64,000 nucleotides of DNA from Alphaproteobacteria bacterium (GCA_003245575.1 QKCR01000081.1:283-64282); one strand, 5' to 3'; numbered from the stretch's first letter, positions 54,416 to 59,069 are shown. The notes: generated by a model from the sequence alone, not told the origin. Made by a program: numbers and translations.

Positions 54416-54829
54416 ATGAGTAAAGTTCTGGCAGCGTGCCTGATGTTGGCCGCACAGACATATTCCGTACCTCCTGCGGTGATGGTTGGCATTCTTCAAG
54501 TTGAAGGTGGCAATATAGGCCAGCAGGTTCGGAACACGAATGGCTCATACGATCTCGGCCCGATGCAAATCAATACAGTTTGGGTTCCGCAGTTGGCTGA
54601 TTATTGGGGCGTTGACAATATCACTGCCGCGCGCTGGGTTCGGGATGATGCCTGTACCAATATGGGGGTTGCCGCATGGATATTGCGCTCCCACATGGAT
54701 GAAACGGGCTCCTTATCTCAGGCAATCGCCCATTACCACTCCCGAACACCAAGTAAAGGCTACGCATATCGGGCCAAAGTAATTGAGGCGATGCGTAAGA
54801 ATGGCCTTATCAAAAGTGCCTCCCGATAG
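54416..54829 (+). CDS. Lytic transglycosylase (SLT domain, VirB1/IagB-like specialised muramidase)
   Basis: 137 aa with a signal peptide. GILQVEGGN (catalytic Glu), DLGPMQIN and AIAHYHS motifs. Confidence 0.75.
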   Translation: MSKVLAACLMLAAQTYSVPPAVMVGILQVEGGNIGQQVRNTNGSYDLGPMQINTVWVPQLADYWGVDNITAARWVRDDACTNMGVAAWILRSHMDETGSLSQAIAHYHSRTPSKGYAYRAKVIEAMRKNGLIKSASR

Positions 54830-55000
54830 AAAAACGGGCAAATTCCGATTAATCATCTGGTTTTGATGAAAAATTCATTTATCATGTCGATTCTGACACG
54901 AAGACGCTTGTCTCGAGTCGGCTAAACCGCTAATGTGTTATGACTTTAGATCGCCGTAGGCGGTCATGCAGGATTTTTTGAAAAAGGGTGTATAGACACA

Positions 55001-55525
55001 ATGTTCCGTTCCGTTTTCTTTGCTTTTTCAATTTGTGTTGTTTCTTTGTCTTTATCGGCATGTGAAACAGCCTCACCGGTCAAAGTAAAAGACCCCCAAC
55101 TTGTTGCGCAACCTGATAAAGTGTCCATGATGCTGGCGCAGGCTGCGGATCGTGCATCCAATGCCCTTGAAACATTGGCGGCTGTTGAACAAAAAAGAAC
55201 CCCTGAAGCGAGTGTTGCAGCAATCGGAAATGTACCGACGGAATTGCGCCGCGCTGTTACAGTCAACTGGGTCGGTCCTGTTGATCCGATTACAAAAATG
55301 TTGGCTGATCGTGCAGGATATAGATTTGTTGAACTCGGCGCGAAGCCTGCAACTCCGGTTGTTGTTGATATTGCTGTAACCAACAAGCCAGTTATCGAAA
55401 TTTTGAGGTCAATCGGTTTGCAATTGGGACCTCGTGCAAACATCCATGTCAACTCGGCAGACAAAATTGTTGAGCTGAGCTATTCTCCGGTAACGGGATT
55501 GGGTGATGTAGCGCAAGGCTACTAG
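55001..55525 (+). CDS. dotD: DotD/TraH-like T4BSS outer-membrane lipoprotein
   Basis: Lipobox LSLSAC. The C-terminal domain VNWVGPVDPITKMLADRAGYRFVELGAKPATPVVVDIAVTNKPVIEILRSIGLQLG...VELSY fits the DotD/TraH pattern. It lies directly upstream of the dotC-like and dotB-like genes. Confidence 0.75.
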   Translation: MFRSVFFAFSICVVSLSLSACETASPVKVKDPQLVAQPDKVSMMLAQAADRASNALETLAAVEQKRTPEASVAAIGNVPTELRRAVTVNWVGPVDPITKMLADRAGYRFVELGAKPATPVVVDIAVTNKPVIEILRSIGLQLGPRANIHVNSADKIVELSYSPVTGLGDVAQGY

Positions 55526-55560
55526 AAATTTGAGACTGGGATAGAGTTGGGATCAAACAA

Positions 55561-56466
55561 ATGGCTTCGAATAACCTGAAAAAACATCAGAGCGAAAAGT
55601 CCACAAAATGGATGCTTGTTGCCCTCTCTTGCATCGGAGTTGCTTGCGCTGGCGCTCAAGCTCAAGCTGCGGCAACAGAACAATCCGCTGAACAATCTCA
55701 GGAACGTGATTACAATGCCGAGGCAACGGTTCCGAAGTCCATGGAACAATTGCAGGAAATCCCGGGATATGTAGAGCATGCAGGTCAAGAAGGCTTGCCG
55801 ATGGACATCAGAAAAGAAGCATTGGAAGAAGCAGCCCTCTCATACGGCGCGCGAGGCGGCTTGGCTGCGCGCAGCTATGAAATCCGTAAAGAGCTTGATG
55901 TGCGTGCTAACTACCTCGACAAGGTCTATAATTTCCGTCAATTGCTGATCGCGGCACCGTCTGGATTCATGATGGAGCCTCCGATCATTTCCGAATCTTT
56001 GAATGCGTTGTTGATTGAAGGCGATGGTCAATCCGCTGCCGTAACCGATGCAATCTACCGTATCCATGAAAATGTAAAAATCGTTTCCGCTCCAAGAAAC
56101 TGGAGAACCTATCTCGAAAGAGGTTGGGGTGAAGTCGAGGAACCACCTGAAATCTTGCGCCCGAAAAATGATGAAGAGCGTATGGAATGGCGTAAGAACG
56201 TCAAAAAAGGGTGGGCAGAAGGATACTCTCAAGCCAGTGAAGTTTTTGAAGAAGATTTGAACAGACTGGCCTCTGATTTTGACGGAATGGTCCGCTATAG
56301 AAAGCTTTTAGCTCAGGGAATGGTTTCGCCGCCGTTTGCTCAGCAAATTGATCGTGGTGTAACAGGTGAATCTGAAACAATGCGCGTGGGAGATCGTGCG
56401 GTTGTTATCACCGGAACACCTCAGCTCATCTCAGGATCTCAAGAATGGCAACCCGCAAGCCGGTAA
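55561..56466 (+). CDS. dotC: DotC/TraI-like T4BSS lipoprotein
   Basis: 301 aa with signal/lipobox LSCIGVAC. Conserved-looking blocks are GARGGLAARSYEI, YNFRQLLI, PPIISE, APRNWRTYL, GW.EGY.QA and DGMVRYRKLLAQGMVSPP. Size and position match DotC. Confidence 0.72.
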   Translation: MASNNLKKHQSEKSTKWMLVALSCIGVACAGAQAQAAATEQSAEQSQERDYNAEATVPKSMEQLQEIPGYVEHAGQEGLPMDIRKEALEEAALSYGARGGLAARSYEIRKELDVRANYLDKVYNFRQLLIAAPSGFMMEPPIISESLNALLIEGDGQSAAVTDAIYRIHENVKIVSAPRNWRTYLERGWGEVEEPPEILRPKNDEERMEWRKNVKKGWAEGYSQASEVFEEDLNRLASDFDGMVRYRKLLAQGMVSPPFAQQIDRGVTGESETMRVGDRAVVITGTPQLISGSQEWQPASR

Positions 56467-57605: not shown

Positions 57606-57669
57606 CCTTCAAGGGACTAAAAGTCTGTATATTAACCTTTCACATAGGATTTCGGGATAAACTCCTTTA

Positions 57670-57972
57670 ATGGCTAATCAGATTGCAGATATTCAGGAAC
57701 AGGTAAATTGGCATTGGAGAAACTCCATGCGCCCTGTCCGTTTCTTTGGATTTGACGTCCGCGCGATTATCCCATTTTGCGTCCTATTGTTCTATGCACG
57801 CCTCTCGACATTAATTATCTGTCTGATCGTAACGGTGTTTTTCTGGTTGTTGGAGAAAAAAGGTCTGACTTTCCCTGCAGCGTTACGCTCATCCCGACTA
57901 TTCTTTTTTGGAAATTATCGCCCCGGCCTAACCAAATTCCGCCACAGGAAGCTGAAAGACTACGGTCGTTAA
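57670..57972 (+). CDS. icmT: IcmT/TraK-like small inner-membrane T4BSS protein
   Basis: 100 aa. WHWRNSMRPVRFFGFDVRAIIPF followed by two hydrophobic helices matches the IcmT/TraK pattern (HWR.S.r..rFf..D.Ra..P). Confidence 0.75.
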   Translation: MANQIADIQEQVNWHWRNSMRPVRFFGFDVRAIIPFCVLLFYARLSTLIICLIVTVFFWLLEKKGLTFPAALRSSRLFFFGNYRPGLTKFRHRKLKDYGR

Positions 57973-58121
57973 CGGAAAATTCGGGGGGAACCCGTCCCGT
58001 TAGAGCGAAAAGCCTGTGGGAGAGGGGATTTTCATGACATTGTTTCTTGAGTTTTCCTCAGACCAACCTTATGGTGGGAGCTACGGAAATTTAGGGTTTT
58101 ATACATGGTAAGCTGGAGTGA

Positions 58122-59069
58122 ATGATGCCATCGAAAAAATTAGTATTTTCAACCTTTTTTGTCGCTGGCCTGATCGGATTGCCGATGATGGCCCATGCCG
58201 GATTTGACTGGACCCCATCCCCGATAAAATCTGCTCCTGCACCTCAGCCTGGTATGCAAGCCCCTGTTGCTGACGGACCACTCACACCGGAGCCTGATGC
58301 AGTGATGGATGCGCCGCCTGTACCGGTCACAGATGTTGACTCTCAAGCCTTGCCGCCTCCGGGAACGATGGCCTCGGCAGAAGAAGGTCAAACCATGACC
58401 CCGACACAAGAGTCTGTAGATCAGCCACAAGATCCGGTTGAATTGGTTGATACGACAGCCGAACCAATACCGACCCCGATCCAGAATGATAAAGTTCTTG
58501 AAGGATTTGGTAAGGAAATTCCGTTGGCCTTGGCCCTTCGTGACATTGTTCCTCCGGAATACGCCTATTCTTTTGCCGATAACGCTTACGCGGGACGCAT
58601 TATCTCTTGGCGTGGTGGCAAACCATGGCAAGATGTACTGAATAATGCTTTGGCTAATCAGGGCCTGACATCTACCATGGCAGGAAATGCCGTCGTGATT
58701 GAGTCAATTGAAGCTGTAAAAGCCCGTCAAATGGACGCAGCAGCCAAGGCCGCAATCAAAAGCGAACCGGTTGCAGAAGCTCCAAAACCCGCTATTCCTG
58801 TTATGAAAGTCGGCGTCACCAGAACATGGCAAGGCCGCCCTGGATACACATTGAAGGAAGTCGTCGGCGACTGGTCCAAATTGGCAAATGTCGAGCTGGA
58901 ATGGCAAAGCCCGTATGATTATCCGATTAATTCGGCTTTTAATTACGAGGGAACATTCGAAGAAGCAGTTCGCAATCTGCTCTCCCAATATTCCCGCGAA
59001 ACCCCGCGTCCTCGTGGGCGTCTCTATCCGAACTTGCCGGAAGGCCCGTCAGTTCTGATGATCAACTAG
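58122..59069 (+). CDS. Secreted Pro-rich protein with C-terminal TcpQ/PilL-like domain
   Basis: Signal peptide ...GLPMMAHA and a Pro/Ala/Gln-rich linker. The C-terminus TWQGRPGYTLKEVVGDWSKLANVELEWQSPYDYPINSAFNYEGTFEEAVRNLLSQY resembles the TcpQ/PilL C-terminal domain. GGAG RBS. Confidence 0.5.
   Translation: MMPSKKLVFSTFFVAGLIGLPMMAHAGFDWTPSPIKSAPAPQPGMQAPVADGPLTPEPDAVMDAPPVPVTDVDSQALPPPGTMASAEEGQTMTPTQESVDQPQDPVELVDTTAEPIPTPIQNDKVLEGFGKEIPLALALRDIVPPEYAYSFADNAYAGRIISWRGGKPWQDVLNNALANQGLTSTMAGNAVVIESIEAVKARQMDAAAKAAIKSEPVAEAPKPAIPVMKVGVTRTWQGRPGYTLKEVVGDWSKLANVELEWQSPYDYPINSAFNYEGTFEEAVRNLLSQYSRETPRPRGRLYPNLPEGPSVLMIN

Follow-up and report, generated by a model that had tools for sequence, protein, structure and literature searches.

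The window analyzed here, a stretch of 64,000 nucleotides from an Alphaproteobacteria bacterium assembly (GCA_003245575.1, QKCR01000081.1:283-64282), carries at 52276-59069 a compact run of eight open reading frames (ORFs) on the plus strand, identified by ORF calling and searches with profile hidden Markov models (HMMs) and all intact. These encode, in this order, a DsbG-like thiol:disulfide isomerase, a conserved 339-aa protein, a lytic transglycosylase (SLT), DotD, DotC, DotB, IcmT, and a PilL-like protein. The intergenic gaps are 22, 45, 171, 35, -22, 64, and 149 nt, the negative value standing for the overlap of dotC and dotB by 22 nt. The original prediction, made from the sequence alone, had seen at 54416-59069 four genes of a type IVB secretion system (T4BSS). 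That span in fact holds six ORFs, including the SLT and PilL-like genes; position 54416 is the start of the SLT gene, DotD starts at 55001, and the conserved unit is the eight-gene one. We interpret this module as one of at least three chromosomal loci of a vertically inherited Dot/Icm-like T4BSS that probably (in our estimate, at about 75%) exports putative effectors, not DNA.

Identity of the Dot/Icm Proteins

Profile HMMs matched all four predicted T4BSS proteins far beyond chance, all of them encoded on the plus strand of the window, and the motifs read from them earlier (LSAC, GPTGSGKTT, LVGEARDRET, TGHAVYTTTHT, and WHWRNSMRPVRFFGFDVRA) are all present in the translations. DotD scored 76 bits against L. 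pneumophila DotD in PDB entries 6x62/3ady, and DotC scored 148 bits against the DotC of 6x62. DotC had been described as a DotC/TraI lipoprotein; the family identity stands (PF16932), whereas the lipobox is non-canonical (ALSC or GVAC).

For DotB, the best model was TIGR02524 with 421 bits, followed by TraJ with 240 and PilT/PilU with 224 bits. This DotB shares 49.9% identity with L. pneumophila DotB (PDB 6geb, 382 bits) and 32-34% with plasmid TraJ proteins, and a neighbour-joining tree places it as the sister of Legionella DotB, apart from plasmid TraJ. An assignment of 56445-57605 to PilT/PilU with no DotC, DotD, or IcmT similarity in the neighbours, the outcome against which the original prediction had set itself, is ruled out by these scores and by the matches of the neighbours to the DotC, DotD, and IcmT families. 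IcmT/TraK exceeds the NF038220 cut-off (82.3 versus 40 bits), with a possible alternative start at 57727, and PF28014 (IcmT_2) is recorded for the identical icmT gene on contig L001. To judge from their sequences, the four window genes are genuine components of a Legionella-type (type IVB) secretion machine.

The Second Locus: DotI to DotO

As had been stated, the large core components are missing from the window: Pfam scans of 40 further ORFs in it gave no T4BSS gene, only housekeeping genes and one distant integrase. Core genes were searched for by phmmer with IncI1 (R64-type) proteins from an annotated plasmid, and also with Acetobacter plasmid proteins, as seeds. About 130 loci of about 20 kb each were fetched (hereafter, the loci read). 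In L013, L015, L016, L017, and L034 the module adjoins homologues of TraM/DotI, TraN/DotH, and TraO/DotG and a DotF-like gene. A search with the DotH of the lineage retrieved 693 PF12293 proteins, many on contigs of the same size as the DotB-bearing ones (e.g., 1,207,854, 1,772,598, and 599,046 bp).

The closest relative of the window, L002, has a 98% identical DotB and 87% nucleotide identity to the window. The same metagenome-assembled genome (MAG) contains L045 (accessions MDY0029747 and MDY0029835, 88 apart), where genes for DotI, a DotI-like protein, DotH, DotG, a DotF-like protein, two membrane proteins, DotN, DotO, and a 168-aa protein lie in a row between those for guanylate kinase and infC (Table 1). 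This is the order of Legionella icmL-K-E-G-C-D-J-B. DotI, DotH, and DotG (PF11393, PF12293, and PF03743) are present in L045, L048, and L049. DotO homologues (TraU phmmer, E-values 1e-93 to 5e-99) also occur on megabase-size contigs carrying DotB, and a scan with the DotO of the lineage itself found the DotI-DotO operon or relatives of DotO in 76 metagenome loci; a search of PDB with TraU matched no DotO structure. A 1.77-Mb JGI contig holds both loci next to each other, with four divergent genes, of a family denoted f8, in between.

Run SRR7216773, in which the contig of the window is present, also yielded a 2.75-kb contig with a DotI-DotH-DotG fragment. Its DotH, flanked by fragments of DotI and DotG, belongs to the same 90% cluster as the DotH of the closest relative, and the fragment is 82% identical in nucleotides to the locus of that relative. 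As this DotH fragment comes from the same run, the organism of the window very probably carries the second locus. The original prediction had allowed for a system either split over several loci or reduced, and had named a genome lacking all other core genes as the sign of a decayed remnant. With core genes on other contigs, in the MAG of the closest relative and, as a fragment, in the run of the window, the split is borne out, while reduction to a remnant finds no support.

The f8 genes form groups of two to five tandem paralogues encoding secreted proteins of 411-826 aa with conserved cysteines, the genes always either diverging from dotI or adjoining the PilL-like gene (L048, 3110-9062, minus strand; L013, 17477-21155; L020, L023, L028, L049, and many DotO loci). 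The family has no Pfam or PDB match. An IcmX-like identity was considered and rejected, as the match to NCBIfam TraW (E = 0.006) is too weak and the hhalign alignment to R64 TraW is insignificant (E = 0.18). The DotI-DotO operon of L048 also includes a gene for a 140-aa Sel1-repeat protein (14325-14747).

The Third Locus: DotM and DotL

An exhaustive search of 50% representatives with L. pneumophila DotL, recovered via a PDB alignment, gave 949 proteins at E ≤ 1e-30; when a profile of Legionella and Acetobacter sequences was used, the list was filled by Legionella. Five of the more distant DotO loci (L099, L100, L108, L107, and L128) encode DotO, then a homologue of DotM/TrbA, and then DotL, which in phmmer searches matches L. 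pneumophila DotL with E-values of 1e-122 to 1e-129 and falls into one group of representatives. One cluster of this group, P0462, the only informative one among 17 DotL representatives looked up, contains proteins named IcmO by NCBI from MAGs of "Alphaproteobacteria bacterium" and "Rhodospirillaceae bacterium". On the alphaproteobacterial MAG contigs L130-L133, DotM and DotL form a separate locus, the context being DotM (NF033890, 171 bits; DotM_C, 3e-47), a 165-aa membrane protein, an 885-aa DotL, and a 108-aa protein. A comparison of contig sizes in bp revealed no contig shared by DotL and DotB. By homology, the DotM-DotL locus can be assigned to the wider clade; for the genome of the window, we infer it.

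Directly after DotL, L130 encodes two ankyrin-repeat proteins of 253 and 231 aa (13143-14596), with the same position in L131 and L132. The ankyrin- and Sel1-repeat proteins at the loci are suggestive as candidate effectors or adaptors. On the TARA marine contig L133, DotM, a small gene, and DotL are found near dnaA-dnaN-recF-gyrB, and alongside them (region 1-5123) is the gene for a 5853-aa RTX-like (HemolysinCabind) protein, together with the ABC and HlyD genes of its type I secretion system. Many DotL representatives (P0370, P0371, P0375, P0427, and ∼40 more) are metagenomic proteins of 1000-1450 aa with an intein-like insertion, which lies within the Walker A motif (G-x-x-G-x-G-K, then A/C ... 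HNTE).

Distribution and Conservation of the Module

An identical DotB is encoded on a Logan contig of run SRR7216773, which is 99.99% identical in nucleotides to the window. DotB has hundreds of close relatives; the best 120 clusters are 77-100% identical and come from MAGs of uncultured "Alphaproteobacteria bacterium", "Micavibrio sp.", and "Pseudobdellovibrionaceae bacterium", the NCBI taxonomy placing Micavibrio within Pseudobdellovibrionaceae. IMG already annotates these relatives as DotB, and the NCBI pipeline, too, labels several proteins of the system. In a scan of one genome per GTDB species, DotB was found in 37 species, all Micavibrio-like MAGs, with 64-98% identity. The host lineage is this group of uncultured Micavibrio-like Alphaproteobacteria.

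The order of the eight genes is kept in the loci of the 37 species, while the housekeeping flanks vary: flanking genes shift with phylogenetic distance, and rplJ follows the module only in closer relatives. Where ribosomal protein L10 adjoins the module, its identity is 75-97%, a range comparable to that of DotB (Table 1). Since the gene order is kept amid changing flanks, we conclude that the module has been inherited vertically without recent insertion, and we regard it as old, chromosomal, and not freshly mobile. The earlier view of a domesticated chromosomal cluster in an alphaproteobacterium thus agrees with the synteny over 37 species, the Micavibrio-like hosts, and a GC content like that of the neighbours (0.49 in the module, 0.47 in the window).

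Accessory Genes

The DsbG-like protein scores above the NF008657 cut-off (136.6 versus 124 bits) and has weak matches to DsbC_N and Thioredoxin_2; its gene lies upstream in 23 related loci. Because it resembles R64 TrbB only weakly and mainly around the CxxC motif (E = 6e-4), we consider it to be a functional counterpart (analogue) of IncI1 TrbB and not an orthologue. The SLT family profile matches the SLT of an Acetobacter plasmid (1.5e-35) and R64 PilT (1.7e-9). The isomerase and SLT would be assembly helpers, mirroring TrbB and PilT of IncI1.

The 339-aa protein has no Pfam, NCBIfam, or PDB match. It occupies the same position in 21 related loci, with 27-94% identity, and is predicted to be all-helical, with no transmembrane segment and with a disordered C-terminal tail rich in S, T, K, and E. 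Its AlphaFold model, built from a single sequence, contains helices only but is unreliable (predicted local distance difference test score, 43).

The PilL-like protein consists of a signal peptide, a linker rich in Pro, Ala, and Gln, a weak STN-like domain (3e-4), and a C-terminal TcpQ domain. The profile of this family finds R64 PilL (6.9e-14), and the gene follows icmT in 30 related loci. It may be a retained thin-pilus or secretin-associated part. After this gene, L019, L029, and L036 have homologues of PilN (secretin), PilO, PilP, PilQ (ATPase), and PilR (in L019, the pil stretch spans 11958-20919). In these three loci, the T4BSS module runs on into a cluster for a type IVb pilus, as on IncI plasmids. 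In L051, pilin-like genes are found upstream.

The gene for the GGDEF-EAL protein ends 8 nt before the module, a position kept only by relatives with a DotB identity of 88% or higher. It may be co-transcribed with the secretion genes, or control them through cyclic di-GMP; its membership in the module is uncertain.

Comparison with Known Systems

The clade shares with Legionella Dot/Icm a set comprising DotB, DotC, DotD, a DotF-like protein, DotG, DotH, DotI, DotL, DotM, DotN, DotO, and IcmT, with 49.9% identity for DotB and 41-46% for the DotL of the clade. The second locus has the order icmL-K-E-G-(C-D)-J-B in both, and both systems are chromosomal, distributed over several loci, without a relaxase at the loci read and with ankyrin or Sel1 genes nearby. 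Unlike in Legionella, however, the host belongs to the Alphaproteobacteria and not to Legionellales, icmT comes after dotB as in IncI, and tandem f8 paralogues stand beside dotI. The Legionella dotDCB genes are not accompanied by DsbG/TrbB-like, SLT, PilL/TcpQ-like, or 339-aa genes, and DotA, IcmX, IcmS/W, IcmQ/R, DotK, and DotU/IcmF of Legionella were not found in the loci read here.

The proposed correspondence of the order D-C-B-T to traH-traI-traJ-traK of R64 was confirmed on an IncI1 plasmid. Moreover, homologues of TraM, TraN, TraO, TraT, TraU, TrbA, TrbC, PilL, and PilT (SLT), more loosely of TrbB, and in some relatives of PilN, PilO, PilP, PilQ, and PilR are present. Identity to the R64 proteins is only 28-34%, though, and the NikAB relaxosome, oriT, and the exclusion, shufflon, and replication genes of R64 are lacking at the loci read. 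Unlike R64, the system is not on a mobile replicon but resides on the chromosome among housekeeping genes and is inherited by descent. The system does not count as an IncI-type mobile element.

Among plasmid proteins, the one closest to DotC (43% identity) is encoded by plas4 of Acetobacter sp. AC2005 (NZ_CP149629.1), also of an alphaproteobacterial host. At 252-8239 of the fetched locus (L042), plas4 encodes DotD-DotC-DotB-IcmT-x-SLT, followed by a DotM-like protein, another gene, and a DotL-like coupling protein. In contrast to the module, plas4 carries a MobF relaxase and is typed as a conjugative plasmid; the DotB it encodes is only 34% identical, and its (incomplete) gene table lists no TraU/DotO or core genes.

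With MacSyFinder, Needham et al. (2022; PMC9418006) found a relaxase-less pT4SSi in seven marine Micavibrionales MAGs. The bacterial order and the class of system are the same, and the two almost certainly belong to the same system family. That report gives one sentence and a supplementary table, without loci, gene order, accessory genes, or lineage-wide distribution, and does not describe the MAG lineage of the window (47% GC; closest relative from a biofilm). As pT4SSi is already listed for Micavibrionales and pipelines already label the proteins, the occurrence itself is not new in principle. We found no paper that joins Micavibrio with Dot/Icm and no account of the loci, order, and accessory genes, and the reviews of T4BSS evolution that we found treat Gammaproteobacteria only. 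The cluster reported in the original prediction is genuine, while that account had missed the eight-gene unit, the PilL-like gene, and the earlier mention in Micavibrionales.

Proposed Function and Alternative Explanations

In the Legionella machine, DotC, DotD, DotH, and DotG together make up an outer-membrane cap, DotO is the docking site of DotB, and DotL/DotM recruit substrates. By homology, DotC and DotD of the module would build the cap and place DotH in it, a DotB hexamer would dock on DotO at the cytoplasmic face, and IcmT would be a small inner-membrane subunit. The DsbG/TrbB-like isomerase would fold periplasmic parts, SLT would open the peptidoglycan for assembly of the machine, and the PilL/TcpQ-like secreted protein and the cytoplasmic helical protein of 339 aa would act as lineage-typical helpers. 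DotI, DotH, DotG, the DotF-like protein, small membrane proteins, DotN, and DotO would be supplied by the second locus, and DotM and the coupling ATPase DotL by the third. The assembled machine would export effectors by contact into another cell, either bacterial prey or a eukaryotic host. Protein export is favored over DNA transfer because DotB is close to Legionella DotB, no relaxase is nearby, and ankyrin and Sel1 genes are; the pT4SSi class that MacSyFinder gave to the Micavibrionales systems points the same way.

Several observations weigh against this interpretation. Two matches remain below the equivalog cut-offs: DotD to NF033882 (111 of 140 bits) and DotB to TIGR02524 (421 of 463 bits). 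In none of the loci read did we find DotA/TraY, IcmX, IcmS/W, DotU/IcmF, or DotK. The DotM-DotL contigs come only from more distant lineages, with a GC content of 0.44-0.59 (0.47 in the window), and none was found on a contig tied to the species of the window. The absence of a relaxase covers the window and the fetched loci. Finally, the genome paper of M. aeruginosavorus ARL-13 reports no type IV secretion system (T4SS), and ARL-13 was not among the matches of the DotB species scan.

As for the missing components, phmmer with R64 TraY gave nothing in the window and the loci read; as TraY and DotA are very divergent and the search was confined to these loci, the absence of DotA is not demonstrated. 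The IcmS/IcmW adaptors had no match in the loci read, and neither had the plasmid seeds TraW, TraX, TraV, TraP, TraQ, TraR, TraL, TraE, TraF, PilM, PilS, PilU, and PilV in phmmer searches. NikB phmmer searches and domain scans revealed no relaxase in the window or the fetched loci.

An unlikely alternative is a working conjugation system that moves DNA, be it the IncI-like mating-pair apparatus of an integrated element or a device for chromosomal DNA transfer. This would account for the traH-I-J-K order, the TrbB-like, PilT-like (SLT), and PilL-like genes alongside, the PilN-O-P-Q-R genes of some relatives, and the fact that the best plasmid match comes from a MobF-bearing, conjugative Acetobacter plasmid of type MPF_I. 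However, the surroundings of the three loci (∼130 loci read) contain no relaxase, integrase, att site, or tRNA, and the three are dispersed among housekeeping genes and conserved clade-wide. Moreover, DotB is 50% identical to the Legionella protein compared to 32-34% for the plasmid ones, and DotL of the clade scores at least 457 bits against L. pneumophila DotL, compared to 333 for the plasmid coupling protein. Still less credible is a functionless remnant of an old conjugative element. It would explain why DotA and several small Dot/Icm proteins were not found in the loci read and why the window by itself has only four recognizable T4BSS genes, but all eight ORFs are intact, the conservation of DotB over 37 species (64-98%) is in a range like that of L10 where it adjoins the module (75-97%), and the partner loci are intact in dozens of contigs, with a DotO of 1000 aa and a DotL of 885 aa.

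The module could also belong to a type IVb pilus or secretin apparatus with no T4BSS channel, DotB being a PilT-like retraction ATPase and PilL/TcpQ a pilotin. DotB is indeed in the PilT superfamily (224 bits with the PilT model), the module ends with a TcpQ/PilL-like gene, PilN, PilO, PilP, PilQ, and PilR come next in L019, L029, and L036, and L051 has pilin-like genes upstream. We consider this improbable, if slightly less so than the remnant: the score of the DotB model is nearly double that of the PilT model, DotC, DotD, and IcmT have no role in pili, most lineages, including that of the window, have no pil genes beside the module, and the clade also has the DotI-H-G-F-N-O and DotM-L loci. 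An effector-exporting Dot/Icm-like machine remains our preferred interpretation.

Genomic Surroundings

The module is flanked, as had been described, by the GGDEF-EAL gene and rplJ. Further upstream are genes for a dihydroorotase-like amidohydrolase and cysS, and downstream, rplJ is followed by rplL, a DUF2817 gene, and rpoB. Further off in the window lie genes for PBP1A, thrC, trpF, relA/spoT, era, and GcrA, the latter, already noted earlier, at 20721-21248. A terminator had been placed at 59078-59113, and a hairpin with a T run is visible at ∼59081-59113, probably marking the end of the transcription unit before the rplJ leader; a terminator consensus scan with a loop limit of 8 nt did not list it, because its loop is 11 nt long.

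Table 1. Genes and features of the module, its borders, and the second locus of the closest relative, with identity across relatives where available.
Feature	Position or locus	Strand	Evidence or remark	Identity across relatives
GGDEF-EAL membrane protein	50078-52267	+	PF00990 1e-37, PF00563 5e-71; upstream neighbour	
DsbG/DsbC-type thiol:disulfide isomerase, periplasmic, CPHC motif	52276-53328	+	NF008657 136.6 bits; module gene 1	
339-aa conserved protein	53351-54370	+	position kept in 21 related loci	
Lytic transglycosylase (SLT), 137 aa	54416-54829	+	PF01464 1.4e-5; TrbN-like 2.8e-29	59-99%
DotD/TraH outer-membrane lipoprotein	55001-55525	+	PF16816 1.1e-37; lipobox LSAC	39-97%
DotC/TraI outer-membrane core protein	55561-56466	+	PF16932 1e-77	44-92%
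DotB, PilT-superfamily hexameric ATPase, Dot/Icm type	56445-57605	+	TIGR02524 421 bits	64-98%
IcmT/TraK small inner-membrane protein, two transmembrane segments	57670-57972	+	NF038220 82.3 bits	43-98%
PilL/TcpQ-like secreted protein, 315 aa	58122-59069	+	PF10671 3.2e-12; last module gene	27-82%
Terminator-like hairpin (CCCGCC...GGCGGG), then T run	59081-59113	+	read from sequence	
Two DotI genes	L045		PF11393	
DotH	L045		PF12293	
DotG	L045		TrbI domain, PF03743	
DotF-like, 433 aa	L045		weak IcmG/DotF match	
385-aa protein, four transmembrane segments	L045			
134-aa membrane protein	L045			
IcmJ/DotN	L045		99 bits	
DotO, 1002 aa	L045		R64 TraU phmmer E 1e-93	
168-aa protein	L045		between DotO and infC	
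Guanylate kinase and infC	L045		flanking genes	

None of the hallmarks of a mobile element (relaxase, integrase, replication genes, att/tRNA borders, or deviating composition) is found within 40 kb of the module, in line with the earlier remarks on the lack of an integrase, relaxase, or tRNA nearby and on the composition. The only integrase of the window, at 2932-4095 on the minus strand, is 48 kb away, and the only tRNA is at 10094-10180. This integrase is of the phage-type tyrosine class (PF00589, 5e-26) and lies in a low-GC stretch (0.35-0.44 compared to 0.47); the region 1-4100 may be a small island or the end of a prophage, unrelated to the T4BSS module.

The DUF2817 gene between rplL and rpoB (60364-61449; PF10994, 5e-51; similar to succinylglutamate desuccinylase/aspartoacylase) is an unusual break in the rplKAJL-rpoBC region, which is also seen in the close relatives L002-L009. 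The ORFs at 34219-35964, 43599-44648, 25837-26820, 17162-18022, and 1936-2928 (286-581 aa) have no Pfam match.

Implications

Dot/Icm systems are regarded as typical of Legionellales and as a sign of an ancient link with eukaryotic hosts. The clade described here would be a second large one, in another class and akin to epibiotic predators of bacteria, that maintains under strong constraint a Dot/Icm-like machine encoded on the chromosome, split over several loci, and apparently without a relaxase. A bolder and rather doubtful possibility is that its system is a deep, vertically inherited sister of the Legionellales Dot/Icm that has IncI-like traits (the traH-I-J-K order, the TrbB-like and PilL-like proteins, and the thin-pilus genes) and injects effectors into the cells on which these bacteria live, possibly bacterial prey. 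Such a system would stand, as a living intermediate, between conjugation machines of the IncI type and effector injectors, and no type IVB system would have been known in bacterial predation before it.

The Micavibrio in culture prey epibiotically on bacteria. As ARL-13 was reported to have no T4SS and gave no match in the DotB scan, the tie to a predatory lifestyle is not established, and the T4BSS-bearing relatives may live differently from the cultured ones. The eight-gene module and its two partner loci provide a marker set to find and classify such systems in MAGs, with the 339-aa protein, the PilL-like protein, and the f8 paralogues as candidate new subunits. The system bears on the origin of effector-injecting machines from IncI-like conjugation systems, and also on the lifestyle of the uncultured relatives of Micavibrio.

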